64,000 nt of DNA from Actinomycetota bacterium (lineage in GTDB: Bacteria; Actinomycetota; Humimicrobiia; Humimicrobiales; Humimicrobiaceae): NCBI GenBank assembly GCA_028717265.1, contig JAQUOE010000005.1, positions 4,190-68,189 on the forward strand. The letters run 5' to 3'. The notes under the pieces were generated by a model. It was given only the letters and a program-made list of their open reading frames with translations, had not been told where the DNA came from and ran no database searches. The translations under genes and the position numbers were made by a program. Shown here one piece after another: positions 19,586 through 51,664 of the stretch (position 1 is its first letter; each line of letters opens with the position of its first letter).

Positions 19586-19651
19586 TACTATTGGAAGATG
19601 AATATTTAAAAATTTAGAAATGATTATCAAACAAATTTATTATATGGTCCG

Positions 19652-20401: not shown

Positions 20402-20424
20402 ATTGAGTAAGGATAAAAAATAAT

Positions 20425-24590: not shown

Positions 24591-24626
24591 CTTACTCCCC
24601 ATCAGTATAAACTGATGGGGAGTAAG
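24591..24626 (+). terminator. GC-rich stem-loop after SBP gene (putative intrinsic terminator / REP-like hairpin)
   Basis: CTTACTCCCCATCAG-tataaa-CTGATGGGGAGTAAG followed by a partial T-run. Confidence 0.45.
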
Positions 24627-26556: not shown

Positions 26557-26600
26557 AAAATATAATTTCAATGGTCATAGAGCATCTGGGAGTGTAAAAA

Positions 26601-28268: not shown

Positions 28269-28386
28269 TTCTTTGTCAATTTATAGTCATATAAATGTAT
28301 TTATTGAAATTTATTTTATGTTTTTATGAAATTATTATTATAGCTAATTAATTTAATGAATAAGTCCTGATCCTGGAGGTATATTA

Positions 28387-29268: not shown

Positions 29269-29314
29269 ATTTTAATTAAATTAGTGACTTTACTTATTTA
29301 TATTCAAAAAAGAT

Positions 29315-30337: not shown

Positions 30338-30476
30338 TTTTATGAATTTTTAAATGATTTAATTCTATTATCTTTTATCATTTAAGAAAACATTTTTTAA
30401 TCACTTTAAAAAATATCCTGTAACTTATATTGATAAAGGTAGTGCGATTAATAAATATGATATGAGTGAGAAAAAA

Positions 30477-33230: not shown

Positions 33231-33232
33231 AA

Positions 33233-33604
33233 ATGAATATAAAAAAAATCATATGTCTGGGGTGTCCCCTTGCTTGTAATATTAACGTAGAAATTAATAA
33301 AGATGAGATAATGAGAGTCAGGGGAGCTAAATGTAAAGTTGGGAAAAAGTATGCAATTCAGGAGTGTAAAGAACCAAGGCGCGTACTCACAACTACCATA
33401 AGGACTACAGAAGCAGACAGACCTCTTTTACCGGTAAGGACCGGAGATTCCATACCGAAAGAATCGATCGCTGAATGCATGAAAATTATGTCAAAGAAGA
33501 TAATAAGTCCGACTATAAAAGCCGGTGATATTGTAATAGAAAATATATCAGGTACCGGCGTGAATGTAATAGCGACCGGAAATCTTTTTGGTTCAGAAAA
33601 GTAA
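33233..33604 (+). CDS. DUF1667-like Cys-rich small subunit
   Basis: CLGCPLAC...C..G motif. Third member of the GlpA-like triad seen in anaerobes. Confidence 0.6.
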   Translation: MNIKKIICLGCPLACNINVEINKDEIMRVRGAKCKVGKKYAIQECKEPRRVLTTTIRTTEADRPLLPVRTGDSIPKESIAECMKIMSKKIISPTIKAGDIVIENISGTGVNVIATGNLFGSEK

Positions 33605-33639
33605 GAATATTTTAAAAATAAAAAAAGTAGGAGGTAATC

Positions 33640-34305
33640 ATGTTTGCATTAATTTCTTACCCGATCGGGGAAAAAGAGACCGTTCCATATAAAATAGAGC
33701 CCAAACCAAAATTAATCCCTAAAGCACGAATTTCAAAAGGTGATATAAATAATACAAGTATGCTGGAAATGAGTGTTCATGGGGGTACTCATATTGACGT
33801 TCCTTTTCATACAGACCCAAACGGATTGACGATAGATAAAATGGATATCCAGGATTTTATATTTGAAAGTCCTCTGCTGATAGAATGCCGGAAAAGTGAT
33901 TTTGAAACAATAACCAGGGAAGATTTGATCCCATTTTGCAAAGATTTAGAAAAAGCCGATTTTTTAATGATATATTCAGGTTTTAGTGAGTACAGATTTA
34001 CTGATTCAGATAGGTTTATCAATAACTCATGCGGTATTTCAAAAGATGGAGCTGAATATCTCGTAAATAATTTTAATTTAAGAGGCGTGATGGTTGATTT
34101 TCTTGGAGTCGAGAATATAAATGAAGGTCTTGAAAAAGGTTTCAAGGCTCATGAGGTATTCTTAGCAAGGGGAAAGAAATTTATTGTTGTAGAAGATGGA
34201 AATTTTAAGCATATTTTAAATAAAGAAATAAAAAGAGTATTTATCATACCTTTGATGCTGGTAGGTGCAGAAGCGTCTCCGGTTACTGCATTTGTTGAAA
34301 TATAA
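33640..34305 (+). CDS. cyclase-family protein, paralogue 2
   Basis: HGGTHIDVPFH motif. Strong RBS ggagg. Confidence 0.75.
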   Translation: MFALISYPIGEKETVPYKIEPKPKLIPKARISKGDINNTSMLEMSVHGGTHIDVPFHTDPNGLTIDKMDIQDFIFESPLLIECRKSDFETITREDLIPFCKDLEKADFLMIYSGFSEYRFTDSDRFINNSCGISKDGAEYLVNNFNLRGVMVDFLGVENINEGLEKGFKAHEVFLARGKKFIVVEDGNFKHILNKEIKRVFIIPLMLVGAEASPVTAFVEI

Positions 34306-34338
34306 AAAACAGTGTGAATGTTTGTAGTAAGATTTTTA

Positions 34339-34358
34339 TACTCCGGATATCCGGAGTA
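34339..34358. promoter_or_regulatory. perfect 20-bp palindrome TACTCCGGATATCCGGAGTA at the junction upstream of repeat copy B
   Basis: Seen directly. Confidence 0.3.
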
Positions 34359-34394
34359 GATACTTAAAGCAATGAATAAAATTAGAACGAGTTA

Positions 34395-35891
34395 AAATGC
34401 TAAATTGTGATGTTTTAATAGTGGGCAGTGGTGTCGTAGGTTCCAGCGTTGCAAGAGAACTTTCTAAATATGAAATAGAAATAATATCAGTCGAGAAAAA
34501 TTCTGATGTCGGATTCAGCAATACAAGCAGAGGAAGTGCCGGTTGGATTCATTCAGGTATTGGTTCCGGAGTCGGATTTTTTGGTGACCTTGCCAACAAA
34601 TTGATAGTGCCTGGAAATAGGATGATGGATCGGTTATGTAAAGAATTAGAGGTACCTTTTGCGCGAAAGGCCGAGATCTTCGTAGCAAGAAGCGAAGAAG
34701 CAGAAAAAGTTTTTAAAGATTTCGAATCACAGGGTTTGAAAAACGGAGTAAAGGGCATAAAGATATTAAAGAAAGACGAACTTGTAGAAATAGAACCATA
34801 TATAACGGAAAAAGCCAGATCAGGTTTTTTCTCCCCGTCATCAGGAGTGGTCTCGCCCTGGGAACTAATATATGCTCAAGTCGAGAATTCTAAGGAAAAT
34901 GGAGCCGAAGTTCTTTCAGGCACCGAAGTAAGAAATATTACCAGAGATAACAATGGAAAGTTAATCGTAGAAACGACTGATGGCGAAATAAGCACAAAAT
35001 ATGTAATAAATTCAGCAGGTCTGTGGGCAGATACTGTTGCCAGCATGGTCGGCGATAACACTTTCGAAATAATTCCAAGAAAAAGCCAGGCACTGATCAC
35101 CGATAAGATATCAGGGAAATTAGTGAAGAATATATTTTTTGATGCCAGCCAGTGGATAAAACCATATACAGGAACTTGTATCGGACCCTCAACAGAAGGC
35201 AATATTTTCATTACCGGAAATGATGCGGAGGCAAATTCAAAAACCGATATTGCTGACAGCGCCGGTGCCATAAAGAATATGATAAAATACGCGAGAGACC
35301 TGTTTCCTTCAATAACATCTAAAGATATCATTAGATATTATACAGGTATTCGTGCCTTAAATACCCTGAAAAATGATTTTATCATTGAGCCATCAAAAGT
35401 ATTGCCCCAGCTAATAAATGTCCAGGCCGGGAGCGGGGGCATGACCTGTTGCATAGCTATAGCAAAATATGTGGCAGAGATATTAAAAAAAGAAGGCTTG
35501 AACCTGGTCAATAAATCCGATTTCAATCCAAATAGAAAAGCCATACCCAGACCAGTAGAGTCATCAGAAGAGGAAATTACGGAACTTATAAAGAAAGACC
35601 CAAGATATGGGCATATCGTTTGTCGCTGTGAGCATGTTAGCGAAGGAGAAATTGTAGAGGCTATAAAAAGGGGAGCCAGGACTGTGGACGGTATAAAATT
35701 CAGGACAAGAGCCGGGATGGGTCGCTGTCAGGGTGGCTTCTGCTCTTCCCGTATTCTTAAAATCATTTCGCGTGAATTAAATGTTCCGGTGACCAGCATC
35801 AATCAAAAAGAAAAGGATAGTGAACTTGTCTTATTTAAGACTAAAGATTTACTGACAATCGGAAAGAAAGATGGTCATGAATAGTAAAAGG
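34395..35891. repeat. ~1.5 kb perfect direct repeat, copy B
   Basis: Identical to 30477..31973. Confidence 0.9.
34397..35884 (+). CDS. FAD-dependent oxidoreductase with BFD-like domain (GlpA-like), copy 2
   Basis: Protein 100% identical to copy 1. Followed only by a vestigial 'MVMNSK...' start of the partner gene. Confidence 0.75.
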   Translation: MLNCDVLIVGSGVVGSSVARELSKYEIEIISVEKNSDVGFSNTSRGSAGWIHSGIGSGVGFFGDLANKLIVPGNRMMDRLCKELEVPFARKAEIFVARSEEAEKVFKDFESQGLKNGVKGIKILKKDELVEIEPYITEKARSGFFSPSSGVVSPWELIYAQVENSKENGAEVLSGTEVRNITRDNNGKLIVETTDGEISTKYVINSAGLWADTVASMVGDNTFEIIPRKSQALITDKISGKLVKNIFFDASQWIKPYTGTCIGPSTEGNIFITGNDAEANSKTDIADSAGAIKNMIKYARDLFPSITSKDIIRYYTGIRALNTLKNDFIIEPSKVLPQLINVQAGSGGMTCCIAIAKYVAEILKKEGLNLVNKSDFNPNRKAIPRPVESSEEEITELIKKDPRYGHIVCRCEHVSEGEIVEAIKRGARTVDGIKFRTRAGMGRCQGGFCSSRILKIISRELNVPVTSINQKEKDSELVLFKTKDLLTIGKKDGHE

Positions 35892-35996
35892 CGGAAATTT
35901 TTGTATTTTATTGTATAAGCGAGAAAGGACAAAAATTTTATTTCCAGACATATTTAAAACTAATTTGAAAAATAAATCATAGGGAAATATATTGAG

Positions 35997-36887
35997 ATGG
36001 TATTGATATCAGCTTTTCCAAAATGTTGGTTAGAAGACATTTCAGAAGGAAGGATGGATTTATTTGAGTGGATAGAAATCTCAAAAAATCTTGATTGCGA
36101 TGGTTTAGAAATTTATTATCGTTTTTTGAAATGTTTGAAATCGGATTATTTAAAAAGAGTCAGGAGGAAAGTCGAAGAACTCAATATGACTATCCCTATG
36201 ATATGTTATTCTTCTGATTTTACAAATCCGGAAAGAGGTATCAGAAAAAAAGAAATAAAAAAGCAGATAGATTTTATCAAGATTACCTCCGAACTTGGCG
36301 GCAGTTATTGCCGTATTCTTTCGGGTCAGGGGCGCCCGGGAGTGTCAGATGAACTGGCCACAAAATGGGTGATTGATTGCATTGAGTCATGTTTGGGAGC
36401 TGCCGAGGATAATGATATTTGCCTGGTTTTAGAAAATCACTATAAAGACAGTTATTGGAAGTTTAAGGAATTTGCCCAAAAAAAAGATATTTTCTTAGGA
36501 ATAGTCAATAGAATCGATTCACAATATTTTGGAGTTCAATATGATCCCTCTAATGCAATTGTAGCCGGTGAGGACCCGATAGATCTTTTGGATGAAGTAT
36601 TGGATAGAGTTAAAACAATGCACGCCAGTGATAGATATCTGAGACCAGGTTTTTCTTTGGATGACATTATTAAGGCAGATGGGGATCCCGGTTACTCCAA
36701 AGGTCTCGTGCATGGTGTTGTTGGTGAAGGACTGAATGATTATGACGCCATATTTAGCAGATTATCCGGTGTAAAATTTAACGGCTGGATTTCAATAGAA
36801 GATGGCATGAATGGTTTTCACGAAATGGAAAAATCAGTTAAGTTCTTAAAAAAAATGAGAGATAAATATTTTGCCGGTAATGTCTGA
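35997..36887 (+). CDS. xylose-isomerase-like TIM-barrel sugar (phosphate) isomerase/epimerase, family A paralogue 1
   Basis: AP_endonuc_2-like TIM barrel. ~60% identical paralogue of 62195..63085 (shared SAFPKCW...ISIEDGMNGF). Confidence 0.75.
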   Translation: MVLISAFPKCWLEDISEGRMDLFEWIEISKNLDCDGLEIYYRFLKCLKSDYLKRVRRKVEELNMTIPMICYSSDFTNPERGIRKKEIKKQIDFIKITSELGGSYCRILSGQGRPGVSDELATKWVIDCIESCLGAAEDNDICLVLENHYKDSYWKFKEFAQKKDIFLGIVNRIDSQYFGVQYDPSNAIVAGEDPIDLLDEVLDRVKTMHASDRYLRPGFSLDDIIKADGDPGYSKGLVHGVVGEGLNDYDAIFSRLSGVKFNGWISIEDGMNGFHEMEKSVKFLKKMRDKYFAGNV

Positions 36888-36998
36888 TAATCTATGGCCA
36901 TTATAACTGTTCCTGATTTCAGTTTATCCCGATACTTTCATTCATCACCAGCTTTGAACCATTTTTCCGGCATCTTTGAGCCAGTTATTTGCTCTATA

Positions 36999-37478
36999 TT
37001 AAGAATTAATAAGTTCGTAACTGTGGCTATATATTTCAAATACTATTCCAAAAGGGTCTTCCACAAAACACATTCTATAAGAATTTTTACCTTTATTAAA
37101 ATATCTTACAGGCATCCTTTGCTTACCACCGGATTCCACAATCTTCTTTATAAGTTCTTCAAGGTCAGGATCTTTTATGCAGAAGTGAAACAGGCCTGTT
37201 TTTGAGTAGCTAAAACTGTCGGTTGTCGGTTTATTATCGGAAAATTCGAATATCTCTATACCTATGCCATCACCGGTTGACATATGGGCAACTTTAAATT
37301 TGGACCATTTTTCCCCGAATACGTCTCTTGCCATTAAACAATCCTCTGAATCGGTATTTTCAATTGTTTCCGGCTCCTTTATGATGTACCAGCCCATAAC
37401 TTCATTATAAAATTTTAAAGCCTTGTCTAAATTCGGTACGGAAAGACCAATATGGGCGAGTGTTCTGGGATAAGTCAT
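36999..37478 (-). CDS. VOC-family (glyoxalase/bleomycin-resistance fold) protein, paralogue 1
   Basis: AHIGLSVPNLDKALKFY start and paired beta-alpha-beta-beta-beta modules. Confidence 0.7.
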   Translation of the reverse strand: MTYPRTLAHIGLSVPNLDKALKFYNEVMGWYIIKEPETIENTDSEDCLMARDVFGEKWSKFKVAHMSTGDGIGIEIFEFSDNKPTTDSFSYSKTGLFHFCIKDPDLEELIKKIVESGGKQRMPVRYFNKGKNSYRMCFVEDPFGIVFEIYSHSYELINS

Positions 37479-37611
37479 ATTGCAGCTCCTTTTCTTATAG
37501 AGGTTAATAATATATACGAACTTTTTACTTAAAGCTAATTAATAAGAATCAATTCTGATTAAAAAACTTTTTGTGCTTCTTTTTTATAATAGTATTGAAT
37601 TTTGTATAAAC

Positions 37612-38361
37612 TTATATTACTTCAACCCCAAGATCTGTTATTTTTTTATATAAATTCTCGGGAAGGTTTGAGTCAACGATTACCTTATCGAAAATAGAAA
37701 TACTGCCAATGCTGCTTATATTTATTTTACTGAATTTTGTACTATCTGCTATTAATACTTTATATTCTGCTTTCATAAGCAGCTTCATTTTTAAATTGGC
37801 TAATTCAAAACTTGTAATCATAACATTCATTTCTGAAGATATTGAATCGCATGCCATAAAGGCTATATTAGCATGTATTTCTTCAATAGTTTTTTCAGCT
37901 AACGGACCTATAAGACTATTTGTATCTAAATGCAATTTACCTCCCGTAAGTATTACAACCACGTTTTTTACATTAGATAATTGTCTTGCAATATAAATAG
38001 AAGGAGTTATTACTGTTAATTTTTTAACTTCTCTTATATTTCTGGCCAGCATAGATGATGTTGAGCCTGAATCAATTATTATAATTTGGTTGTCTTTTAT
38101 TAATTCGGCTGCTTTTCTGGCTATTTCCTCCTTTTTCTCCCTGTTAATATTCAATCTGCTTTCAAAGGAAGGTCTGGCATAGTCGAGTGATGTTGCACCA
38201 CCGTGCCATCTTTCAATCAGGCCTATCTTTTCCAAGTCCAATAGATCACGCCTGAGGGTAGAAGTGGGTATGTCTGTTTCTTTTTTCAAATTTTGGATTG
38301 TTATGAAACCTTTTTCAATTATAGTTGTTTTTAATTTGTCCAGCCTGTCTTTTTTCTTCAA
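37612..38361 (-). CDS. DeoR/GlpR-family transcriptional regulator
   Basis: N-terminal DeoR HTH (ITIQNLKKETDIPTSTLRRDLLDLE) and a C-terminal DeoR sugar-binding domain. Confidence 0.8.
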   Translation of the reverse strand: MKKKDRLDKLKTTIIEKGFITIQNLKKETDIPTSTLRRDLLDLEKIGLIERWHGGATSLDYARPSFESRLNINREKKEEIARKAAELIKDNQIIIIDSGSTSSMLARNIREVKKLTVITPSIYIARQLSNVKNVVVILTGGKLHLDTNSLIGPLAEKTIEEIHANIAFMACDSISSEMNVMITSFELANLKMKLLMKAEYKVLIADSTKFSKINISSIGSISIFDKVIVDSNLPENLYKKITDLGVEVI

Positions 38362-38635
38362 TTTTCAATAAATTTTGTAAAAATGATAAATTTTAAATAA
38401 TAAAATATTATACATGTGTTATTAATATTGACAAGTATTTTGACAATTATTATTATTTATGATATATATTATAACTAATTAGTTCATAAATGTGAATAAA
38501 TTAGTTAATAATTCTTGATTATCTGATTTTGTTTTTAAATAGGAGCTTCATGTCTGATTTAACATATGGTTTAAAATAATATTCCTTTATTATCTAAAGA
38601 AGATTAATAACATATTTAAAATAAAGAGGCAGAAA

Positions 38636-39517
38636 ATGAGTAAAGAAATTAAAGGGATTATCCCGCCATTATTAACCAGTTTTGATAAGAATGGCAATAT
38701 ATATAAAAAGGGACAGAGAGAAATAATAGAATTCATATTGCCATACATCGATGGCGTGTATCCGTGTGGAACATATGGCTCTGGCCCTCTCATGAGTTCT
38801 GATGAGCGCAAGACAGTTGCAGAGATAATTATTGAACAAATAAACGGAAGAGTTCCCGTCATTATACATGTTGGAGCTGCAAGCACGAGAGAAACGGTTG
38901 AACTGGCAAAACATGCCGCAAAAGCTGGCGCAGATGCAGTGGGTGCTATTGCCCCTTACTATTACAGTTATAATGAAAAGGAATTATTAAATCATTATAA
39001 AATATTAATCGACTCGGTGAATATACCTGTATTTTTGTATAATAATCCACATACTTCAGGTAATAGTATTTCTCCCGGGGTATTGAACGAGCTGGCAAAA
39101 TATAATCTTGCGGGGATAAAAGATAGTGCTTTTGACCTGGTTAATTTTTATTTATACCAGATTGAAGTAGATAATCCGAATTTCAAATTTATTATTGGAA
39201 CTGAAGCTATAGCAATGGCTTCTTTCATGTCCGGCGCAAAAGCAGCAATTTGTGGCGTTGCCAATGTGATACCGGAACCGCTTCATAAATTTTGGGAATT
39301 AGTTCAGAGAAAGGAATGGGAAGAAGCACAAAAATTTCAGATGGAAATACTTAAAATAAGAAAAGTTATGAAAATGGGATCAACACTCACAAATTGTTAT
39401 GCTATTTTAAAAATCAGGGGCATAGATAGCGGTTGGCCGCGGATGCCATATCTTCCGGTAGATGATATGCTGCAGAATAAAATAAAAGCTGAATTGTTAA
39501 AGCTTAATGTTATTTAA
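38636..39517 (+). CDS. DHDPS/NAL-family class I aldolase, paralogue 2
   Basis: IIPPLLTSF, GVYPCGTYGSG, and the Lys context GIKDSAFD. Confidence 0.8.
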   Translation: MSKEIKGIIPPLLTSFDKNGNIYKKGQREIIEFILPYIDGVYPCGTYGSGPLMSSDERKTVAEIIIEQINGRVPVIIHVGAASTRETVELAKHAAKAGADAVGAIAPYYYSYNEKELLNHYKILIDSVNIPVFLYNNPHTSGNSISPGVLNELAKYNLAGIKDSAFDLVNFYLYQIEVDNPNFKFIIGTEAIAMASFMSGAKAAICGVANVIPEPLHKFWELVQRKEWEEAQKFQMEILKIRKVMKMGSTLTNCYAILKIRGIDSGWPRMPYLPVDDMLQNKIKAELLKLNVI

Positions 39518-39545
39518 GCCGGATAAATGAAAAAATATTAAAAGT

Positions 39546-40538
39546 ATGGATTTTCTTATGGATAAAGTTTTAATTTGTTCGAGTTCTTTCGGAAAATTTA
39601 CGGATATAGGTTTAGGTTTATTGAAGAAAAATAATTATAAAATTATAATCAATGAGCTCGGAAGAGGTTTCAAAGAAGATGATTTTTTCCCTTATATCAA
39701 AGACATTGAAGGCATGATTGTGGGGAGTATGGATGAAGTCACTAAAAAGGTGATCGAGGCAGGTAAAAGATTAAAGGTTATATCTGTTCATGGCAAGGGA
39801 ACTGATAATATTGACATCGAATGTGCGACTGATCATGGTGTTTATGTTGCTAATGCAGGTAAATCAGAGAATAATAAAATAGCAGTTGCAGACTTAACAT
39901 TTGGTTTGATTTTATCGATTGCTCGAAATATTCCTACTGCCAATGAAATGGTAAAAAACTGTGTTTGGCAAAGAATAGTCGGGAAAAATGTGGGCAAAAA
40001 AGTTATTGGAATAATTGGTGCCGGTGAAATTGGGAAAGAAGTAATAAAGAGAGCAAAAGGATTTGAAATGGAGGTACTGGTAAATGATTTATTCGAGGAC
40101 CAATATCTGCTGAAGAACTATAAAGTAAAATACACGACTTTGGATTATTTATTAAAAAATTCAGATTTCATATCAATAAACGTAACACTGACAAGTGATA
40201 CTGAAAAATTAATTAGTGATAGAGAATTTAACTTAATGAAGCCCGGTGCTTTCCTGGTTAATACATCCAGGGGTAAAGTAATCGATGAGAAAGCTTTGTA
40301 CAATGCTTTAAAGGAGAATAAAATAGCAGGTGCGGCTATAGATGTTTATAACGCCGAGCCTATAAAAGCGACGGATCCTTTACTTAAACTTGATAATATA
40401 ATCACCACTCCGCACTATGGATTACACACTATTGAATCTCTTGAAGAAGTTGATTATATTTCAGCGAAAAATGTAGTTGATGCATTAAGAGGTGAAAAAC
40501 TGATAAATGCGCTAAATGATCCGATTAGTATTGATTAA
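39546..40538 (+). CDS. D-isomer-specific 2-hydroxyacid dehydrogenase (PGDH-like)
   Basis: GIIGAGEIGKEV NAD-binding loop and the catalytic region ...TPHYG. Confidence 0.8.
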   Translation: MDFLMDKVLICSSSFGKFTDIGLGLLKKNNYKIIINELGRGFKEDDFFPYIKDIEGMIVGSMDEVTKKVIEAGKRLKVISVHGKGTDNIDIECATDHGVYVANAGKSENNKIAVADLTFGLILSIARNIPTANEMVKNCVWQRIVGKNVGKKVIGIIGAGEIGKEVIKRAKGFEMEVLVNDLFEDQYLLKNYKVKYTTLDYLLKNSDFISINVTLTSDTEKLISDREFNLMKPGAFLVNTSRGKVIDEKALYNALKENKIAGAAIDVYNAEPIKATDPLLKLDNIITTPHYGLHTIESLEEVDYISAKNVVDALRGEKLINALNDPISID

Positions 40539-40573
40539 CATGGCAAACGATGAGTTTTTTCAAGGAGGAAAAA

Positions 40574-41248
40574 ATGATAGTCGAATTATCGTATTTAATT
40601 GGCGATTTGAATCCGGTTGAAATGTTAGGATTGTTAAAACCCGATATTAAATGGAGAGCAAGGTTTGGAGATGGTCAGGGCAAAAGCAATCAAACAAGTA
40701 ATATAGAAATGTCCAGTCATAATGGTACACACATAGATGCTCCATTTCATGTTTTAGAGAATGGAAAAAAAATAACGGATTTCGATATTTCCAATTTTTA
40801 TTTCGAAAAGGTTTTAGTTATTGATTGCGAAAAGAAAGACCTTGAAAAAATAGAGATAAATGACCTGAAACCTTATGAGAAGAATTTAAAAAATATTCAA
40901 TTATTGTTGATTTATACTGGTTTTAGCAAGTACAGATTTACGGAGACGGAAAGATATATAAAAAAATCACCGGGCTTTTCAATTGAAAGTGCTAAATTTA
41001 TTAAAAACAATTTTCCGAATATTAGATGTATCGGCGTTGATCTTATGGGTATTGAGAATATTATTGAAGGTAGGGAATCAGAATGGGTAATTCATAAAAT
41101 ATTATTTGAGGGTAATTCTAATTATTTTCATATTGAAGATATGAATGTTAAACCTGTTGCAGATAAAGAAGTTAAGAGAGTATTCATAGGACCAATCAGG
41201 TTTATTGGGTTGGAAGCTTCTCCCGTTACGATTATGGCAGAAATCTAG
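40574..41248 (+). CDS. cyclase-family protein, paralogue 3
   Basis: HNGTHIDAPFH motif. Start placed at the ATG six nt after the aaggagg RBS (the ORF track's upstream start is less likely). Confidence 0.75.
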   Translation: MIVELSYLIGDLNPVEMLGLLKPDIKWRARFGDGQGKSNQTSNIEMSSHNGTHIDAPFHVLENGKKITDFDISNFYFEKVLVIDCEKKDLEKIEINDLKPYEKNLKNIQLLLIYTGFSKYRFTETERYIKKSPGFSIESAKFIKNNFPNIRCIGVDLMGIENIIEGRESEWVIHKILFEGNSNYFHIEDMNVKPVADKEVKRVFIGPIRFIGLEASPVTIMAEI

Positions 41249-41289
41249 ACTGATAAATATTATTTGAGAAAGAATAGGATAAATAAGGC

Positions 41290-41691
41290 ATGAAGAAACT
41301 TTTTAAGACTGTTGAGCATATAGGGATTTATTCTTCTGATACAACCAGATTAGCAAATTGGTACATTGAGCTATTCGGATTAGAATTATTATTAAAGATC
41401 GAAAAAAGACCTGAGAGTAAATCAGTATATTTTTTAAAATCTAATGGAACGGTCATTGAAGTCTTGCCCGCAAAAAGTGATGCCGGCATGGAGAGGGAAA
41501 TCGGTGATACGGGCATAAACCATATCGGAGTCATAGTAGAAAATTTCGATGAGGCTGAAAAATATTTTGAAAAAAGAGGAGTCGTGTTAAGCGATATAAG
41601 AGAAACCAGCCTGGGCTGGAAGATCGGATACCTGAGAGACCTGGAAGATAATATAATTGAGGTTATCCATAAACCGGAAAATCATTTTTAA
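41290..41691 (+). CDS. VOC-family protein, paralogue 2
   Basis: VEHIGIYSSD...GINHIGVIVENFDEA. 133 aa. Confidence 0.7.
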   Translation: MKKLFKTVEHIGIYSSDTTRLANWYIELFGLELLLKIEKRPESKSVYFLKSNGTVIEVLPAKSDAGMEREIGDTGINHIGVIVENFDEAEKYFEKRGVVLSDIRETSLGWKIGYLRDLEDNIIEVIHKPENHF

Positions 41692-41788
41692 TAAAATACG
41701 AATGTAGAATTAGGAAAAAGATATCCGGAAAGAAATCTATACAAATTTTATTGAATTGAATAAGAATTATAATAAGGAAAATTTATAG

Positions 41789-42175
41789 ATGGATTTTAAA
41801 AGGATTATGCATGTAGGAATAATGGCCAAGAATACCGGTTCTTTATGTAATTGGTATATAAAGAAATTGGGCTTTAAAAAAGTATATCAGTTGCCGGCTA
41901 CCATGGAAAGATCTGAAGTGTATTGGTTGAAATTTGAAAACAACATGATTGAGATAGTACCCGCAAATAATAATATGAGACGCAATCGTTCAATAAAAGA
42001 TCCGGGTATCAGCCATTTCTCGATAACTGTCGAATGTTTTGACGAATATCTGGAAAAAATAATTAAAAAGGGAATAAAAGTAGAGGATATACATGAATTT
42101 AAAGAGTTCAAATGTGGTTTTTTTAATGATGGGGAAGGAAATCTTGTAGAAATTTTGTCCTTCACGAAATTATGA
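41789..42175 (+). CDS. VOC-family protein, paralogue 3
   Basis: IMHVGIMAKN...GISHFSITVECFDE. 128 aa. Confidence 0.7.
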   Translation: MDFKRIMHVGIMAKNTGSLCNWYIKKLGFKKVYQLPATMERSEVYWLKFENNMIEIVPANNNMRRNRSIKDPGISHFSITVECFDEYLEKIIKKGIKVEDIHEFKEFKCGFFNDGEGNLVEILSFTKL

Positions 42176-42954
42176 GGATTGTTAGGAGGTATATATTGGA
42201 TAAAATTGAATTGGCTATAGGAGTTCCTGATGTTTGTAAGAAAATTACAATTTTTACGAAAACAGGAGAATTAATAAGTAAAGTTGATAAAAAGAAAATC
42301 GATCAACTTGGGAAAAAAGCCAGAGAAATGGCAGCCTCGTATTCTGCACCAGGTTGTGCTACCGATGCTTTTCTGGGTATTACGGAAGCCCTGGAAATAA
42401 AAGGCCGGGAAGAAGTATTTAAAGCTACCTTAGGATTGTCCGGCGGATGCGGTCAAATGGTAAGGGGAACATGTGGTGCCATATTGGGTATGGCAATGGC
42501 AATATCTTTAAGTTTTGGTATCGATAAAAAAATAAACGATGAAATAAGAAAAGACAGTGAAACGATGGTCCCTTTTTATAAGAGAAGGATGCCAAAGTGG
42601 AGATATATAATGTTCAATAAAATTTTGTATGTGATTGACAGAGTTAAAGATAAATATGGCGGAACCACCTGTGCCGATATACAATTCGAACGACACGGCC
42701 AAACCTTTGATTCCAGAGATCCCAGAATAAGAGAGTTATGGCATGCTGATATCCAGAAATGCAGAGAAGTTGAAGGAGATATTGCGGAGTGGGGAGTTTT
42801 TTCACTGCTGCAGTCAACAAAATGGGATGAGGGTCTGAAGGAATGGGATCTGCCAAAAGAGATCCTTAAAAGGGGAGATCAATATTTTAAAGAAGAGGAA
42901 GGATTTGATTTACCGCCAAGATGGGAGGATAACTGGGATAGACATAAATATTGA
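42172..42954 (+). CDS. C_GCAxxG_C_C-family putative redox-active protein with long C-terminal extension
   Basis: PGCATDAFLG...GLSGGCGQMVRGTCGA matches the C_GCAxxG_C_C family cysteine pattern. ~110 extra C-terminal residues rich in W/D/E. Confidence 0.5.
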   Translation: MRIVRRYILDKIELAIGVPDVCKKITIFTKTGELISKVDKKKIDQLGKKAREMAASYSAPGCATDAFLGITEALEIKGREEVFKATLGLSGGCGQMVRGTCGAILGMAMAISLSFGIDKKINDEIRKDSETMVPFYKRRMPKWRYIMFNKILYVIDRVKDKYGGTTCADIQFERHGQTFDSRDPRIRELWHADIQKCREVEGDIAEWGVFSLLQSTKWDEGLKEWDLPKEILKRGDQYFKEEEGFDLPPRWEDNWDRHKY

Positions 42955-43150
42955 CGGCTTATTTTAAGAGTTACTATGTAAAAAATTTATTTACCGATTC
43001 TATAGTTAATATCTTTGTAATAACCTTAATTTGCATTGTTAAATGTTGCCAGTATGATTTGTTCAATAAAAAATAATATTCTATTCAGTATTGAAATTTT
43101 TAAATTATTAGATAGTTATTGTCTATAAACAATATCAGGGAGGAATGTAA

Positions 43151-43636
43151 ATGGAAAAAGAAATATGGCTGCAACACGTTGGTATAGGAGCAAAGGATGC
43201 GAATAAACTTGTTGATTGGTACTGTGATGTTTTAGGGCTTGAAAAGGTCTATGAAATTCCTGCTACAGAATATAGATCCGGCATGCCCTGCATAGGTATA
43301 GGGAAAAAAGATAAAATAGTAATTGAAATTTTCCAGAATGGAGAATTTAATCCATTGACGGGAAAACCATTAACCGAAGATGAAAAATCAAGAGTTTTTG
43401 ATAAAAATGGAGAAATTAAGGATATAAAACGTGATTTAATTGATCAGGGCATAAATCATATAGGTTTTAGAGTGGATGACTTTAAAAAATTCTCAAAGAA
43501 TTTGGAAAAAAAAGGAGTAAATTTTATAAAAGAAAGAAAAACATCCAAGGGCTGGACAATGGGTATGTTATCAGATCCGGAAGGTAATCTGATTGAAATA
43601 TTTTGGGCCGATGAGCTGCTTCCATATGAAAAATAA
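43151..43636 (+). CDS. VOC-family protein, paralogue 4
   Basis: LQHVGIGAKD...GINHIGFRVDDF. 161 aa. Confidence 0.65.
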   Translation: MEKEIWLQHVGIGAKDANKLVDWYCDVLGLEKVYEIPATEYRSGMPCIGIGKKDKIVIEIFQNGEFNPLTGKPLTEDEKSRVFDKNGEIKDIKRDLIDQGINHIGFRVDDFKKFSKNLEKKGVNFIKERKTSKGWTMGMLSDPEGNLIEIFWADELLPYEK

Positions 43637-43691
43637 TTTTTTAATTCGGCATTGTTTATTATATGTAAAAAATTCTATATAAAAAGGAACA

Positions 43692-44456
43692 TTGAGAATG
43701 AATGAAGAATTTTCCAATAAAGTATGTATTGTAACCGGGGGAGCAACAAATATCGGGAAAGTTACAGCTCTGTCGTTTGCCAGAGGAGGCGCTAAAGTAG
43801 CAATTATCGATATCAAAGAGAAGGAAGGTAAAGAGACCTTAAAGGAAATCGAGCAGTATTCGGAAGGTTTATTCATTAAAACCGATATAGCTCTGTGCGA
43901 TAATGTAAAGAAATCGGTGAAAGAAGTATATGATAAATTCGGACATATTGATATCCTGGTCAATAACGCTGTTATTTGTTTGCATTGTTACGGCAAGGAT
44001 GTTTCAGAGGAAGTATGGAATAAAATGACGGATGTCAATCTTAAGGCCTTATTCTTTTTTTCACAGGAAGTATCGAAAATAATGAAAATCCAGAAGAGCG
44101 GAAGAATTATTAATACGGCATCTTCAACCGGGGTAGCTGCGAGAAAAGATTATTTAGTATATACCGGTCAGAAAGCAGGAGTGATCGGTCTTACTAAAGC
44201 ACTGGCATTAGAATTAGCAGAATATAATATTCTGGTCAATTCAGTTTCACCTGGTTATGTTTTAACAAAGGCAAAAGAGAAATTGGTTAAAGATAGGAAA
44301 TTTATGAATTGGCTAAAAACAAGAATACCAATTGGAAGATTTATATCTATGCAGGAAATTGCTAATGTGTATTTATTTTTAGCATCCGATAGATCTTCCG
44401 CCATAACTGGCCAGAATATTATTGTTGATGGAGGCTGGCTTATTAATCAAGGATAA
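43692..44456 (+). CDS. SDR-family oxidoreductase (tandem copy 1)
   Basis: VTGGATNIGK, NNAV, Y..K motifs. Full-length classical SDR. Confidence 0.85.
   Translation: MRMNEEFSNKVCIVTGGATNIGKVTALSFARGGAKVAIIDIKEKEGKETLKEIEQYSEGLFIKTDIALCDNVKKSVKEVYDKFGHIDILVNNAVICLHCYGKDVSEEVWNKMTDVNLKALFFFSQEVSKIMKIQKSGRIINTASSTGVAARKDYLVYTGQKAGVIGLTKALALELAEYNILVNSVSPGYVLTKAKEKLVKDRKFMNWLKTRIPIGRFISMQEIANVYLFLASDRSSAITGQNIIVDGGWLINQG
43705..43972. repeat. 268-nt identical segment shared by the 5' halves of the two tandem SDR genes (copy A)
   Basis: Identical to 44502..44769. A second ~50-nt identical patch lies at ~44043..44092 vs ~44840..44889. Confidence 0.85.
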
Positions 44457-44491
44457 ATGATAGTTTAATTTAATTATAAGGATGAAGAAAT

Positions 44492-45241
44492 ATGGATCAA
44501 AAAGAATTTTCCAATAAAGTATGTATTGTAACCGGGGGAGCAACAAATATCGGGAAAGTTACAGCTCTGTCGTTTGCCAGAGGAGGCGCTAAAGTAGCAA
44601 TTATCGATATCAAAGAGAAGGAAGGTAAAGAGACCTTAAAGGAAATCGAGCAGTATTCGGAAGGTTTATTCATTAAAACCGATATAGCTCTGTGCGATAA
44701 TGTAAAGAAATCGGTGAAAGAAGTATATGATAAATTCGGACATATTGATATCCTGGTCAATAACGCTGTATTAATAATTCCCAAATCCGTTCTGGATATT
44801 TCGGAAGAAGAATTTGATAGAATGCATAATATAATTTGCAAAGCATCATTCTTTTTTTCACAGGAAGTATCGAAAATAATGAAAATCCAGAAGAGTGGGA
44901 AAATCGTTAATATAGCAACCAGTCCTGGAGAAAACAAAAAGCATACCTACCATATTCCAAAAGCCGGGGTTATAAGAATGACCCAGGCATTTGCAGTTAA
45001 ACTTGCAGAATTTAACATAAATGTTAATTCGGTTTCACCAAATTTCACTCTCACTGACAGGCATATACCGGGGGTTTGTCCTGAAAAAACTTTGGAATTT
45101 TATAAAGAAAGAGCACCCATGGGCAGATTTGTTACAATGGAAGATGTTGCAAATGCAGTTTTATTTTTTGCATCAGAAAAGTCTTCAATCATAAATGGGC
45201 AGGATCTGGTTTTAGATGGTGGCTGGTCCATACACGCTTAA
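44492..45241 (+). CDS. SDR-family oxidoreductase (tandem copy 2, divergent substrate-binding half)
   Basis: First ~94 residues identical to copy 1, then divergent. Confidence 0.8.
   Translation: MDQKEFSNKVCIVTGGATNIGKVTALSFARGGAKVAIIDIKEKEGKETLKEIEQYSEGLFIKTDIALCDNVKKSVKEVYDKFGHIDILVNNAVLIIPKSVLDISEEEFDRMHNIICKASFFFSQEVSKIMKIQKSGKIVNIATSPGENKKHTYHIPKAGVIRMTQAFAVKLAEFNINVNSVSPNFTLTDRHIPGVCPEKTLEFYKERAPMGRFVTMEDVANAVLFFASEKSSIINGQDLVLDGGWSIHA
44502..44769. repeat. 268-nt identical segment (copy B)
   Basis: See copy A. Confidence 0.85.
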
Positions 45242-45268: not shown

Positions 45269-46831
45269 ATGAGTAAAAAATATATTATCACTTATGATAT
45301 AGGTACTACAGGTGCTAAGGCATGTTTATTCGATCAAAACTTAAATGTTATCGCATCTGATTTCGTTTCTTATAGAACTTATTATCCTAAAGAAAATTTA
45401 TCGAATCAAAAACCAACTGAATGGTGGAATGCTGTTTGTAAAAGTACAAAGAGATTAATTGATGTTTCTAAAATAGATAACAAAGAAATAGTTGTTATCG
45501 GAGTTGCCGGGCAGTACCCTGTTATAGTACCAATCGATAGAAACAATGAATTGCTAACTGACGATGTCCCCGTATTTTCCGATATAAGGGCTATCAAGCA
45601 GGCTGAAAGATTAGTCAACGGAATTGGAAGTTCTGATGGTTTATATAAAATAATTGGAAGTGGCAGACAGGCTATGTTAAGTGTATGTAAGGCTATGTGG
45701 ATTAAAGATAATTATCCTGGTACATTTAAAAAAGTACATAAATTCGTAGCGACGAAAGATTATATAAATATGAAATTAACCGATGTTCTTAGTACCGATT
45801 ATAGCGATTTTTGTGCCAGTGGTTTTATGGATATAAGTAAAAGGCAATTTTCAGATGAAATTTTAGATGTATCAGGTATCAAAATTGATAAAATTCCGGA
45901 AATACGTAAGTCACATCATATTATTGGGGGTGTTAGCAAAAAAGCTGCAGGAAGCACCGGTCTGAAAGAGGGCACCCCGGTTATAGCGGGAGCTGCAGAT
46001 GCGCTGTGCGCCTGTATAGGTTCAGGAGTAATTGAAAAAGGGGAAGCATGCATGAGCATTGGCTCTGTAAACTGGACCAGTATAGTAGCGGGTGAGCCTT
46101 TTTTAAATACAAATTATAAGGTTTCCAGTCAATTACCTTTTCCATGGGAAAATGCTTATAATCCCTTGATTGATACTTATGCAGGTGGTTTAAGTCAGGA
46201 ATGGTTTAAAAACAAAATTTATAAGACTGAAGAATTGATATTTAAAGAATTGAATTTGAATATTTATGATTTCATGAATAAAAAAGTCGAGGAAATTAAT
46301 CCCGGATCGGATGGATTATTATTTTTGCCTTATTTAAAAGCTGAAGGTCCGCCTTATTATAATCCGAATATGAGAGCATCTTTTATAGGATTAAGTATGT
46401 ATCATAATAGGGAACATATGCTCAGATCAGTATTTGAAGGAACTTGTTTAAACATGAAACTTCTTTTAGAGATATTTAATAAAAATGGTGTAACAGTAAA
46501 TGACTTTAAAGAAATCAAGGTTGTAAGTGGTGGGGTAACTTCCAGAAATTGGATGCAGTGTTACTCGGATATTCTAAATATGCAATTAGCAGTAGTCAAG
46601 GATCCCAGGCAGGCAACGACAAAAGGTATAGCGATTGTAGCAGGTGTAGGGGCTGGAATTTGGAAAAGCTTTAAAGATGCCACTGCCCTGACTGGAATTA
46701 GTGAAATTTATGAACCTCAAATAAAATTTCAGGAAAAATATAGAAAATTATTTGAAGTTTATAAAAAATGTAGTTTAAAAATGGTAGAGATTTGCAATGA
46801 TCTGGCAGATTTTAGGGAAGATAAAAAATAA
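45269..46831 (+). CDS. FGGY-family carbohydrate kinase (xylulokinase/glycerol-kinase-like)
   Basis: YIITYDIGTTGAKACLFD N-terminal ASKHA motif. The ORF-track start at 45257 is a TTG; ATG at 45269 preferred. Confidence 0.8.
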   Translation: MSKKYIITYDIGTTGAKACLFDQNLNVIASDFVSYRTYYPKENLSNQKPTEWWNAVCKSTKRLIDVSKIDNKEIVVIGVAGQYPVIVPIDRNNELLTDDVPVFSDIRAIKQAERLVNGIGSSDGLYKIIGSGRQAMLSVCKAMWIKDNYPGTFKKVHKFVATKDYINMKLTDVLSTDYSDFCASGFMDISKRQFSDEILDVSGIKIDKIPEIRKSHHIIGGVSKKAAGSTGLKEGTPVIAGAADALCACIGSGVIEKGEACMSIGSVNWTSIVAGEPFLNTNYKVSSQLPFPWENAYNPLIDTYAGGLSQEWFKNKIYKTEELIFKELNLNIYDFMNKKVEEINPGSDGLLFLPYLKAEGPPYYNPNMRASFIGLSMYHNREHMLRSVFEGTCLNMKLLLEIFNKNGVTVNDFKEIKVVSGGVTSRNWMQCYSDILNMQLAVVKDPRQATTKGIAIVAGVGAGIWKSFKDATALTGISEIYEPQIKFQEKYRKLFEVYKKCSLKMVEICNDLADFREDKK

Positions 46832-46899: not shown

Positions 46900-47748
46900 T
46901 TGGATCTAATTTGTTATTCATGTTTGTTAAGACAGTTAATAGATTTATTATCATGTGCAAAAGTAAGTTCTGAAAAAAGTCACGAAGTCTTTTTTAAAGT
47001 ATATGATTACATAAAAAACAGGCCGTTAGATGAATTATGTCTACAGATTGGGAATGAGATATATTTAATTCTAAAAGAAGAAACGGGAATCGGGGACCCA
47101 TGCAGGGAAATTAAAGATATTAGCAATAAGTTATCATTAGAGATTTATCCCTGGTTAAAAAAAATTGTACAAAATTCGAAGAATAAGCTCGAAACGGCAT
47201 TAAAAATTGCGATAGCAGGTAATGTCATAGATGTTGGGGCGGGCATAGATCTGGACTTAAGGAAAGCAGTTGAACAAACCATAATCCAGGATATAGATGA
47301 AAGATATTATCGCGATTTTGTTAGCCTTATTTCGAATGCAAATAATATAATATTTCTGGCAGATAATGTAGGAGAGGTTGTTTTTGATAGAGTTTTTTTA
47401 GAAGAAATAAAAAAAGTTAATAAAAATAAAATTTATTATGTAGTAAAAGATAAACCATATCTTAATGATGCTCTCAGAAATGATGCAATCTGTGCCAGAA
47501 TAGATAAGATCGCAGAAGTCATTTCAAATAGCTCCGACTATGCAGGGACACAATTAGATAAATGTCATAGCAGTTTCTTGAAAGAATTCAATAAAGCCGA
47601 TTTGATTATTTCTAAGGGTTATGCGAATTATATGAGCTTAAAGAATATTGAAAAGCCTATTTTTTTTCTTTTTAAAATAAAGTGTCCGTTAATGCAGGAT
47701 GAATTTAATGTAAAAAAAGGCTCTATAATATTTAAAAATAATCTGTAA
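46900..47748 (+). CDS. DUF89 / ARMT1-like metal-dependent sugar-phosphate phosphatase (candidate)
   Basis: FLADNVGEVVFD matches the DUF89 DNxGxExxxD metal-site motif. Upstream IAGNVIDVGAG. Confidence 0.5.
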   Translation: MDLICYSCLLRQLIDLLSCAKVSSEKSHEVFFKVYDYIKNRPLDELCLQIGNEIYLILKEETGIGDPCREIKDISNKLSLEIYPWLKKIVQNSKNKLETALKIAIAGNVIDVGAGIDLDLRKAVEQTIIQDIDERYYRDFVSLISNANNIIFLADNVGEVVFDRVFLEEIKKVNKNKIYYVVKDKPYLNDALRNDAICARIDKIAEVISNSSDYAGTQLDKCHSSFLKEFNKADLIISKGYANYMSLKNIEKPIFFLFKIKCPLMQDEFNVKKGSIIFKNNL

Positions 47749-49312: not shown

Positions 49313-49489
49313 GACACACGCATGTAGTAGTATGCGCTTAGTCCTGTATGAAAAGAAATGTCAAGTATAATACCCGCATTCTTAAACAAGACGGTCTAAG
49401 ATTAGTGAAGGGAGGCTAATCCTAACCATTTGACCACTACATACGTGTGTCTATGGCATAATTACTTAAAATTTTTCAGTAATTATGCC
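49313..49489. repeat. nested inverted repeats in the BadF-Gfo spacer
   Basis: Outer imperfect inverted repeat (GACACACGCATGTAGTAG / CACTACATACGTGTGTC), an inner perfect 12-bp hairpin (GGCATAATTACT...AGTAATTATGCC), and a flanking direct repeat TTCAGTAATTAT. Confidence 0.3.
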
Positions 49490-50689: not shown

Positions 50690-51664
50690 CTATGCCCAGT
50701 ATATTTCAGCAGGTTTTTCCTTTATCACCACTTCCTTTAAGAATTCAATAGTCTTTCTCATTCCTTCTTCACCGGACATAAGGGCATCTTCATGTTCAAT
50801 GCTTAAAACATAATCATAATTTTCCTTGGACAGCTGTGATACAAAATTTTTCCACCAATCATATCCATTGCCGTAACCAACGACTCTAAACAACCATGAT
50901 CTATTCTTTACATTTACAAATGATTTAGTGTCCAGAACTCCATTTAGCGCAGTATTGTAATTATCAATTTTTGTATCTTTGGCATGTACATGAAACAGTG
51001 CTCCTGCCTCAGATATTTTTTTCATTGAAACAATAGGGTCAATTCCCTGCCAGAATAAGTGGCTTGGATCAAAGTTTGCTCCAATTACATCTCCCACATT
51101 TTCTCTCAGCTTAAGAAGAGTCTCAGTATTATAGACAACAAATCCTGGATGCATTTCAAAGGCCAGTCGGACTCCGTGATCTTTTGCAAATTTACCAATT
51201 TTTTTCCAATAGGGGATTACTTTCTTCTCCCACTGCCAATTTAAAATTTTAGGATAATCATTTGGCCAGGAGCAAGTTACCCAGTTAGGATATTTATCAT
51301 TTTCGGAACTACCGGGACACCCGGAAAGTAAGGTAATTGTTGATACACCAAGCTTTTCCGCTAAAAGAATTGCGTTGTTTGTCTTCTCATTATGTTCTCT
51401 GGCTATGGATTCATCAGGGTGAAGAGGATTCCCATGTACGGCTAATGCACTTATTAGAAGATCTCTTTTTTCTACTTCCTCTTTATATAATTTTAATTTT
51501 TCATTACTTTTTAAAAGTTCTCGAGAGTTACAATAAATACTACCCGGGTAATTTCCCGCACCCAGCTCCACTGCTTCCAATCCTAAATTTTTAACTTTAT
51601 CTAACATATCCTCTAATCTGGGATATGAATTATAAAAAACAGCTGTTATTACTCCTACTTTCAT
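50690..51664 (-). CDS. xylose-isomerase-like TIM-barrel protein, family B paralogue 1
   Basis: Paralogue of 58669..59610 (shared LGLEAVELGAG...HVHAKD...EHED). Confidence 0.8.
   Translation of the reverse strand: MKVGVITAVFYNSYPRLEDMLDKVKNLGLEAVELGAGNYPGSIYCNSRELLKSNEKLKLYKEEVEKRDLLISALAVHGNPLHPDESIAREHNEKTNNAILLAEKLGVSTITLLSGCPGSSENDKYPNWVTCSWPNDYPKILNWQWEKKVIPYWKKIGKFAKDHGVRLAFEMHPGFVVYNTETLLKLRENVGDVIGANFDPSHLFWQGIDPIVSMKKISEAGALFHVHAKDTKIDNYNTALNGVLDTKSFVNVKNRSWLFRVVGYGNGYDWWKNFVSQLSKENYDYVLSIEHEDALMSGEEGMRKTIEFLKEVVIKEKPAEIYWA

Follow-up and report, generated by a model that had tools for sequence, protein, structure and literature searches.

Long-lasting concerted evolution of protein-coding genes is reportedly rare in prokaryotes, where 26 cases have been described, including the tandem genes mtrA-1/mtrA-2 (PMC6053082). 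Gene conversion proceeds processively, and its reach depends on how similar the sequences are (PMC6053082; PMC5485169). Here we describe a pair of adjacent genes for short-chain dehydrogenases/reductases (SDRs), which we call SDR-A and SDR-B, in a stretch of 64,000 nucleotides (nt) from an Actinomycetota bacterium (GenBank assembly GCA_028717265.1, contig JAQUOE010000005.1, forward-strand positions 4,190 to 68,189), taken from a contig of 68,435 nt in a metagenome-assembled genome at NCBI. This whole stretch is referred to below as the window, and positions are counted from its first nucleotide. In the SDR pair, as in tufA/tufB of Salmonella and the 26 prokaryotic cases, paralogs within a genome are closer to each other than orthologs are between genomes (PMC6053082; PMC5485169). 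In all of them, synonymous sites are homogenised, and recurrently so in several lineages. The tuf genes, however, are near-identical over their full length and lie far apart, whereas the SDR pair is homogenised over only ~36% of the gene (268 of ~750 nt at the 5' end, together with an island of 48 nt), its copies lie 0.8 kb apart, and synonymous divergence in the remainder of the genes is saturated; it also encodes metabolic enzymes and belongs to an uncultured lineage. We conclude, with a probability of roughly 0.87, that recurrent partial gene conversion between old tandem SDR paralogs has kept their 5' ~270 nt identical.

A tandem SDR gene pair with exact internal repeats

The two genes and the segments into which they divide are listed here in order, with R1 and R2 denoting the two exact repeats and dS the synonymous divergence.

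43698..44456, + strand: SDR-A gene, 252 amino acids (aa), a classical SDR; NCBI MDD5621900.1 (exact protein)
43705..43972, + strand: R1, the putative conversion block, SDR-A copy; 268 nt, residues 3-92, from TGxxxGxG to NNAV
43973..44050, + strand: A-type-specific middle segment, apparently unconverted; joins A orthologs with bootstrap 1.0
44051..44098, + strand: R2, the putative conversion patch, SDR-A copy; 48 nt, encoding FFFSQEVSKIMKIQKS
44099..44456, + strand: A-type 3' part, apparently unconverted; 56% nt identity to B, dS 1.74
44492..45241, + strand: SDR-B gene, 249 aa, a divergent classical SDR; NCBI MDD5621901.1
44502..44769, + strand: R1, SDR-B copy; 268 nt, residues 4-93
44770..44847, + strand: B-type-specific middle segment, apparently unconverted; joins B orthologs with bootstrap 1.0
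44848..44895, + strand: R2, SDR-B copy; 48 nt
44896..45241, + strand: B-type 3' part, apparently unconverted; under strong purifying selection, 83-87% identity to B orthologs

Both products match the Pfam family adh_short_C2 (SDR-A, 3.5e-62 and 210 bits; SDR-B, 3.1e-52 and 178 bits; cut-off 27). The initial annotation of the stretch had opened the first gene at the TTG at 43692, which is the start given by mechanical open reading frame (ORF) calling; we use the annotated ATG at 43698 instead, and the rest of that observation holds. The two R1 copies (43705-43972 and 44502-44769), which the initial annotation had already recognised, are direct repeats 797 nt apart and 100% identical over 268 nt, with 0 mismatches. 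Their assignment to the cofactor half likewise stands, with the residue range shifted from ~5-94 to 3-92 in SDR-A and 4-93 in SDR-B. The second identical patch, first put at ~50 nt, measures 48 nt and is again 100% identical with 0 mismatches (44051-44098 versus 44848-44895).

Outside R1 and R2, the genes are as strongly divergent as had been proposed, with ~55% identity and saturated synonymous divergence. In the codon alignment, nt identity is 52-54% across the 25-26 codons between R1 and R2 and 56% across the 3' ~113 codons; dS along the same alignment rises from 0.02 (5' block) to 1.36 (middle) and 1.74 (3' part). When the same differences were shuffled 20,000 times, the longest identical run reached a maximum of 54 nt (mean 19), compared with the 268 nt observed, and the analytic P for a run of 268 nt is ~1e-32. 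R2 lies in a locally conserved background, where identity between other A-B pairs is 63-90% and their unbroken matches span 5-29 nt; it is less extreme than R1 but still exceptional.

The division of the genes also follows the predicted fold. AlphaFold2 (AF2) models built from 67-sequence alignments show the β-α-β pattern, with predicted local distance difference test scores (pLDDT) of 95.0 for SDR-A and 93.6 for SDR-B, and Foldseek aligns them to FabG-like SDR structures with template modelling (TM) scores of 0.89-0.93 (SDR-B at ~0.9 to 4jro and 4nbu). R1 in SDR-B (4-93) covers βA (10-14), αB, βB (34-39), αC, βC (58-62), αD and βD (87-90), and as modelled it corresponds to the dinucleotide-binding half, βA-βD with αB-αD, ending at NNAV. 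In the same AF2 model, the unconverted middle of SDR-B (94-119) forms the βD-αE loop and the first half of helix αE, R2 (about 120-135) forms the second half of αE, and the 3' rest supplies βE, the active-site loop, αF with YxxxK, βF, the substrate loop and the C-terminus. The predicted structures thus match the earlier description of an identical cofactor half joined to a divergent substrate half.

All of the cofactor motifs (TGGATNIG, NNAV and Asp38/39) lie inside R1 and hence are the same in A and B; the NNAG motif reads NNAV in this clade, with Gly replaced by Val. The acidic residue after βB suggests that both SDRs prefer NAD. The catalytic tetrad Asn-Ser-Tyr-Lys is complete in SDR-A and incomplete in SDR-B, where Ile115 takes the place of Asn and Thr143 that of Ser, while Tyr153 and Lys157 are retained; among the aligned relatives, Asn is found at the tetrad position in 59/67 and Ser at the catalytic position in 58/67. 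SDR-B also has a 3-residue deletion before YxxxK, and its active-site loop is shortened. Within the B-type orthologs (P0001-P0004 together with SDR-B), Thr replaces Ser in 5/5 lineages and Ile replaces the tetrad Asn in 4/5, with P0004, from contig L105, retaining Asn. B-type SDRs may be a subgroup with altered chemistry, and a prediction of different substrate specificities for SDR-A and SDR-B is plausible.

Public assemblies of the window's population, 99.7-100% identical to it, were found via exact protein look-ups and then mapped. The following contigs end or start at the pair.

L111 (Logan SRR22315506): window 35860-43734, ending 30 nt inside R1 (SDR-A copy)
L110 (ENA ERZ27247363, named k141_): window 35353-43845, ending 141 nt inside R1 (SDR-A copy)
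L112 (Logan SRR8542065): window 42975-43972, ending at the last base of R1 (SDR-A copy)
L001 (JGI 3300029288): window 37141-44615, with the upstream VOC gene, the whole of SDR-A, the spacer and then 114 nt of the second R1 copy
L107 and L109 (Logan): starting at 44866, with only the last 30 nt of the second R2 copy included
L108 (JGI 3300037067): starting at 44874, with only the last 22 nt of the second R2 copy included

Six independent assemblies (JGI 3300029288 and 3300037067; ENA ERZ27247363; Logan SRR22315506, SRR22315509 and SRR8542065), from at least five samples and three assemblers, are broken at the repeat edges with k-mer-sized overhangs (30, 141 and 114 nt). An overhang of k-1 = 30 nt or k = 141 nt is the trace that a de Bruijn assembler leaves at a node with two predecessors or successors; we take k to be 31 in the Logan project and, by convention, read 'k141_' in a contig name as presumably the final k of MEGAHIT. 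Because the breaks fall at the repeat edges, reads from at least five samples must contain both R1 and R2, each of them joined to two distinct flanks. The repeats are real and are no assembly artefact.

Segment phylogenies, mechanism and alternatives

Protein searches covering 5.8 billion proteins returned only six close relatives of the pair, so the clade is thinly sampled; among 185,579 species genomes scanned, nothing exceeded 40% identity. With A' and B' standing for the orthologs, contig L002 carries a partial A', B', the FGGY kinase and the ARMT1-like gene; L003 carries VOC, A' and the start of B'; and L006 carries a partial A' and B', with the contig ending at the B stop codon. L024, from the same sample as L006, reads C_GCAxxG, VOC and the start of A'. 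In L004 (ENA ERZ27247363) and L005 (JGI 3300029288), contigs of 945 and 1360 nt, VOC and the A-type upstream spacer are followed by a gene made of the 5' block and the B-type 3' part, and the A 3' half is missing. Whether these two represent a genuine recombinational deletion hybrid or a collapsed repeat is ambiguous. Both end 23 nt past the stop codon, and L006 at the B stop itself, which may point to a further break point shortly after B in these strains.

The most distant member, at 71%, is L105 (ENA ERZ27275859, k141_1198851), where VOC is followed by an A-type 3' remnant and then B'. The remnant, at about 600-665, encodes the A-type C-terminus '...IIDGGWLINQD*', so SDR-A was deleted secondarily in L105 while SDR-B was kept. 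The remnant rules out L105 as evidence for a single-SDR ancestor; L004 and L005 are ambiguous in this respect. The outgroup contig L115 has a single SDR (P0122, ~51% identity to A), directly followed by an FGGY kinase and DeoC-type aldolases. Comparison of these orthologous loci, which the initial annotation had singled out as informative, shows that the tandem pair is ancestral to the clade, with one SDR in the outgroup. An origin by separate duplication events, one per lineage, was rejected, since the 3' halves are orthologous across lineages.

Neighbour-joining trees were built for each segment with 500 bootstraps, with W denoting the window's lineage. The 5' block trees pair each A with the B of its own genome (bootstrap 1.0 for W, 0.97 for L002, 0.99 for L003 and 0.94 for L024/L006), whereas the middle and 3' segment trees are ordered strictly by gene type, with bootstrap 1.0 each. 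The same pattern is seen in pairwise identities. Within genomes, the 5' blocks of A and B are 100% identical in the four lineages in which both copies are visible (268 nt compared in W, ~100 nt in L002, 84-93 nt in L003 and ~75 nt in L024/L006, the last including ~10 nt upstream of the ATG), while between genomes the block is only 71-86% identical. In the middle segment, nt identity is 80-85% for A-A, 75-92% for B-B and 49-56% for A versus B in any genome; in the 3' segment, the corresponding values are 79-88%, 83-87% and 54-57%. A common 5' half with a type-specific 3' half is found in every clade member.

Between lineages, dS in the 5' block runs from 0.8 to saturated, equal to or above that of the 3' part (0.7-1.3). 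The identity within genomes therefore does not come from constraint at the nucleotide level, and the block has been repeatedly homogenised. In W and L002, the tract has its 3' end at one and the same codon (after AATAACGCTGT, at the NNAV motif), which coincides with a drop in similarity to ~53%. Its 5' end lies within codon 3 in W, and ~8-10 nt before the ATG in L003 and L006/L024; because these boundaries differ between lineages, they argue for separate conversion events. R2 groups by genome in W alone (bootstrap 0.88), and in L002 A and B are 73% identical there. Together, the segments point to recurrent homogenisation in four lineages, and so to concerted evolution, not a single event. B-type proteins meanwhile show dN (nonsynonymous divergence) of 0.03-0.05 against dS of ~1, indicating strong purifying selection.

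Based upon these data, we propose that SDR-A and SDR-B are old tandem paralogs in a polyol or sugar catabolic operon (VOC, SDR-A, SDR-B, FGGY kinase, ARMT1-like), and that identity over their first ~270 nt is maintained through interlocus gene conversion, in the form of recurrent, non-reciprocal homologous recombination from one copy to the other. From what is established about homologous recombination, and in line with the tuf study in Salmonella, conversion requires flanking identity; direct repeats at this distance are a good substrate, and each conversion would restore perfect identity, leaving the 5' half as a self-perpetuating conversion substrate. The diverged middle and 3' parts (~55% identity) could lie beyond the reach of conversion; alternatively, converted middle or 3' variants could lose their type-specific function and be purged by selection. 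A separate second tract, the 48 nt in helix αE, would have been homogenised in the window's lineage. As for the origin of the pair, the 3' halves of A and B are ~50% identical in protein, the nearest relative of the B 3' half outside the B group is A-type (51%), and the A 3' half is slightly closer to outgroups (51-55%). The single outgroup SDR and the A-type affinity of the B 3' half fit a tandem duplication of an A-like gene, after which the B 3' half, with the catalytic and substrate-binding functions, probably diverged faster. The two enzymes may now act on different substrates that feed the same kinase. None of this calls for a new mechanism: the pair is a further example of a known process. 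The recent partial gene conversion proposed in the initial annotation is thus backed by segment-specific phylogenies, dS and independent assemblies. Its companion proposal of domain shuffling is unneeded, as the 3' divergence is old (dS is saturated, and the 3' halves are orthologous across lineages), and its view of conversion as a diversifying force has to be reversed, as conversion homogenises.

Several points weigh against recurrent conversion as the explanation. The join from R1 to the B-specific middle in the window's strain is seen in the metagenome-assembled genome alone, and a few single-nucleotide differences between the copies may be hidden by graph simplification, so that true identity may be better given as '>= ~98%' rather than 100%. 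Outside W, contigs break in the repeat and the visible part of the second copy's block is just 75-102 nt, and the pairing of L024 with L006 assumes one genome in one sample. All lineages are homogenised, which leaves no trace of whether the most recent transfer ran from A to B or from B to A. No GC-bias signature was detected when G+C at third codon positions was compared between the block and the rest, where the differences are small and inconsistent (0.36 versus 0.29-0.30 in W; 0.20 versus 0.23 in L006). Finally, R2 is an island flanked by heterology, which simple contiguous tracts do not explain; it may stem from a discontinuous tract of a rare kind, or from a short event of its own where the sequence is locally conserved.

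The alternative that survives best keeps conversion as the mechanism but has selection maintain the identity, with homogenised variants favoured, possibly because both products need the same cofactor module and αE interface, for instance as parts of a heterotetramer like that of the SDR BbsCD, or because balanced expression is at stake. In its favour, the visible parts are fully identical in all four lineages, SDR-B has a modified catalytic set, and R2 sits in helix αE, which in SDRs is part of the main dimer interface. Tandem-encoded heterotetrameric SDRs do exist (BbsCD, 7pcs, which is among the structural matches; PMC13418739). Yet in L105, where A has been deleted, B remains intact and under purifying selection, and hence functions on its own. 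Moreover, R2 is unhomogenised in L002, and the homogenised 5' half (βA-βD) is not known to be a major oligomer interface in SDRs. SDR-B also retains Tyr, Lys and a complete cofactor half, unlike the inactive supporting subunits of BbsCD (PMC13418739), and neutral conversion at a high rate between repeats 0.8 kb apart would suffice. We consider selection of this kind improbable. Slightly more doubtful is the specific proposal that SDR-A and SDR-B form a heterotetramer in which a matching cofactor module and αE interface are favoured; if it were true, conversion would keep the two subunits co-adapted while their substrate halves specialise.

A second alternative is that the pair was born mosaic, with one partial duplication or domain shuffling event joining the 5' half of A to the 3' half of a foreign SDR, and no later conversion. 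This would account for the mosaic architecture of every clade member and for 3' halves that are only ~50% identical in protein. It predicts, however, that A and B within a genome have 5' halves as diverged as those of different genomes (dS 0.8 to saturated), whereas they are identical in four genomes. The A-type affinity of the B 3' half fits duplication at full length, and a mosaic origin followed by later conversion would still be compatible with the data. On balance, a mosaic birth without conversion is very unlikely.

Equally remote is a recombination switch, in which deletion between the direct repeats would fuse the promoter and 5' half of A to the 3' half of B in one hybrid gene, and duplication would reverse this, so that copy number or specificity could vary. 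L004 and L005, with VOC, the A-type spacer, the 5' block and the B-type 3' part, have the topology of such a hybrid, and chimeric genes arise readily by deletion between paralogs in E. coli experiments (PMC13626634). But both contigs are short, an assembler shortcut gives the same topology (as in L106 and L114, from one sample), no such variant is seen in the window's strain, and deletion between direct repeats is an expected by-product of their presence that carries no evidence of a switch. The weakest alternative, which the initial annotation had itself raised against its reading, is that the identical block was made by an assembler, as a chimera or collapsed consensus of uniformly divergent genes; although the source is a metagenome-assembled genome and short-read assemblers do shortcut repeats here (L106 over a 1494-nt GlpA-like repeat, with its loop as L114 in the same sample), uniform divergence is excluded and the chimera is largely refuted and barely credible, given the six contigs that stop at the edges with k-1 or k overhangs, the independent reading of L001 into the second R1 copy, the same mosaic with its own block sequences in the relatives, and the k-mer overlap that a path from spacer through R1 to the B-specific part requires at both R1 ends.

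Recurrent conversion is thus the explanation that we retain. Structured RNA was also considered as a cause of the identity and was rejected, with no Rfam match at E<=1 and a fold z-score of 0.02. The antisense ORFs at 43571-43963 and 44497-44937 are merely mirrored by the repeat.

Gene neighbourhood and other repeats of the window

SDR-A and SDR-B lie in a run of same-strand genes, VOC, SDR-A, SDR-B, FGGY and ARMT1-like, which correspond to MDD5621899-MDD5621903. The elements around the pair are the following.

43151..43636, + strand: VOC/glyoxalase-family gene (Pfam), also found upstream of A in L003, L024, L004 and L105
44457..44491, + strand: A-B spacer of 35 nt, with its own ribosome-binding site
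45269..46831, + strand: FGGY carbohydrate kinase (Pfam), start confirmed by an exact NCBI protein
46900..47748, + strand: ARMT1-like (DUF89) damage-control phosphatase (Pfam), conserved in L002

The spacer length is conserved at 34-35 nt in L002, L003 and L006. No terminator-like site was found in the spacer, so SDR-A and SDR-B are probably co-transcribed. The tandem order A-B-FGGY-ARMT1 is conserved, with the FGGY kinase downstream of the pair in L002 and after the single SDR in the outgroup L115. Further neighbours are a DeoR regulator, a DHDPS-type aldolase, a 2-hydroxyacid dehydrogenase, a cyclase, three VOC proteins and C_GCAxxG. These neighbour genes suggest polyol or sugar oxidation feeding a kinase. 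In an ENA contig of 8895 nt, from a strain at least 90% identical, the FGGY kinase appears in two fragments (P0130 and P0131, 214 aa and 259 aa), which is due to a frameshift, a pseudogene or an assembly error. A candidate second SDR-SDR-kinase module at 18827-21960, with equal ORF lengths, turned out to be an SDR, an IclR regulator and an ABC ATPase, and is unrelated.

More generally, the window is a dense island of carbohydrate, sugar-acid and polyol catabolism with many paralog sets. These include two AP_endonuc_2 genes (36430-36872 and 62628-63070; 72% nt identity), two DHDPS-type aldolases, three cyclases, at least four VOC proteins, several SDRs and two FGGY/DGOK-type kinases, alongside an ABC sugar transporter and IclR and DeoR regulators. 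G+C content is only 0.29-0.43, despite the Actinomycetota label.

The window contains another exact duplication. A gene for a GlpA-like FAD oxidoreductase (495 aa; DAO and BFD [2Fe-2S] domains) occurs at 30478-31971 and again at 34396-35889, as 1494 nt with 0 mismatches at a distance of 3.9 kb. Downstream of copy 1 come a glpB-like gene and DUF1667, and downstream of copy 2 a xylose-isomerase-like TIM barrel. The duplication extends into the glpB-like ORF by 19 nt; behind copy 2, this ORF breaks off after 15 codons, so copy 2 derives from copy 1. Contig L106 (JGI 3300029288), compared with window 26200-37049, joins DGOK, the GlpA-like gene and AP_endonuc_2 and omits the 3918 nt from one exact copy to the other; the omitted loop (glpB-like, DUF1667, cyclase) is present as a separate contig, L114, in the same sample and as L113 in ENA. 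L106 is an assembler shortcut over a true repeat, and calls for caution when gene content is read from such contigs. Both GlpA-like copies of the window have T (31336 and 35254) where the strain of L106 has G. Over the 5.8 kb compared, 9 of the 16 mismatches between L106 and the window fall within 217 nt (30106-30322), at the 3' end of the DGOK-like kinase gene and just upstream of the GlpA-like repeat; this cluster may reflect local import by recombination or a patch that varies between strains.

Smaller repeats were also found. A 41-nt inverted repeat, 93% complementary (51036-51076 and 59248-59288), lies inside the opposite ORFs 50690-51664 (-) and 58669-59610 (+), and the surrounding ~125 nt are ~76% identical; these ORFs are probably paralogs with a locally conserved or converted patch. 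Two near-perfect intergenic palindromes, at 24591-24626 (36 nt, 94%) and 49455-49489 (35 nt, 91%), may be terminators or operator sites.

Comparison with known systems

Both SDRs resemble FabG-like enzymes (2uvd, 4jro and 4nbu, and the sorbitol dehydrogenase 4npc) in the motifs TGxxxGxG, NNA(V) and YxxxK and in their predicted fold. FabG proteins (3-oxoacyl-ACP reductases) are their best PDB matches, but identity is just 30-38%, and the pair stands among genes of sugar or polyol catabolism (FGGY kinase, aldolases, VOC, ARMT1-like, DeoR regulator), not among fab genes of fatty-acid synthesis. SDR-A and SDR-B are most likely not FabG.

BbsCD offers a parallel in that it, too, is made of adjacent SDR paralogs, and for both proteins BbsD (7pcs_B) ranks among the top matches, in sequence as well as in structure. 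The BbsCD complex combines two active with two inactive supportive subunits (PMC13418739). SDR-B differs from the inactive BbsCD subunit in having the same Tyr, Lys and cofactor half as SDR-A, and it persists alone in L105. A different comparison is provided by the icd/icdC and cpsG/manB chimeras of E. coli evolution experiments (PMC13626634), in which, as in L004 and L005, a single hybrid is made from paralogous direct repeats. Unlike those chimeras, both genes of the window are intact, and the hybrid topology of L004/L005 may be an assembly shortcut. The template and variable repeats of a diversity-generating retroelement were set aside as a comparison, as the copies are without mismatches and lie in the conserved half of the protein.

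The pair appears to be a clean natural case of segmental concerted evolution in bacterial metabolic enzymes, recurring in at least four lineages. For paralogs of this kind, whole-gene trees and identity values (67% here) are misleading, and short-read metagenome assemblies systematically break or take shortcuts at such loci, as six or more public contigs do here. The pair adds a well-delimited example of a rare process, in which the boundary of the tract is also a boundary of the fold.

The fetal globin genes of humans present a similar picture, with conversion restricted to a near-identical 5' part, a divergent 3' part and a sharp boundary between them. They resemble the SDR pair in the segmental, 5'-restricted conversion of tandem duplicates. 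The globin genes are eukaryotic, however, and their boundary lies at an intronic simple-sequence element, whereas in the SDR pair it lies at the end of βD, at the NNAV motif, where homology between the two genes collapses.

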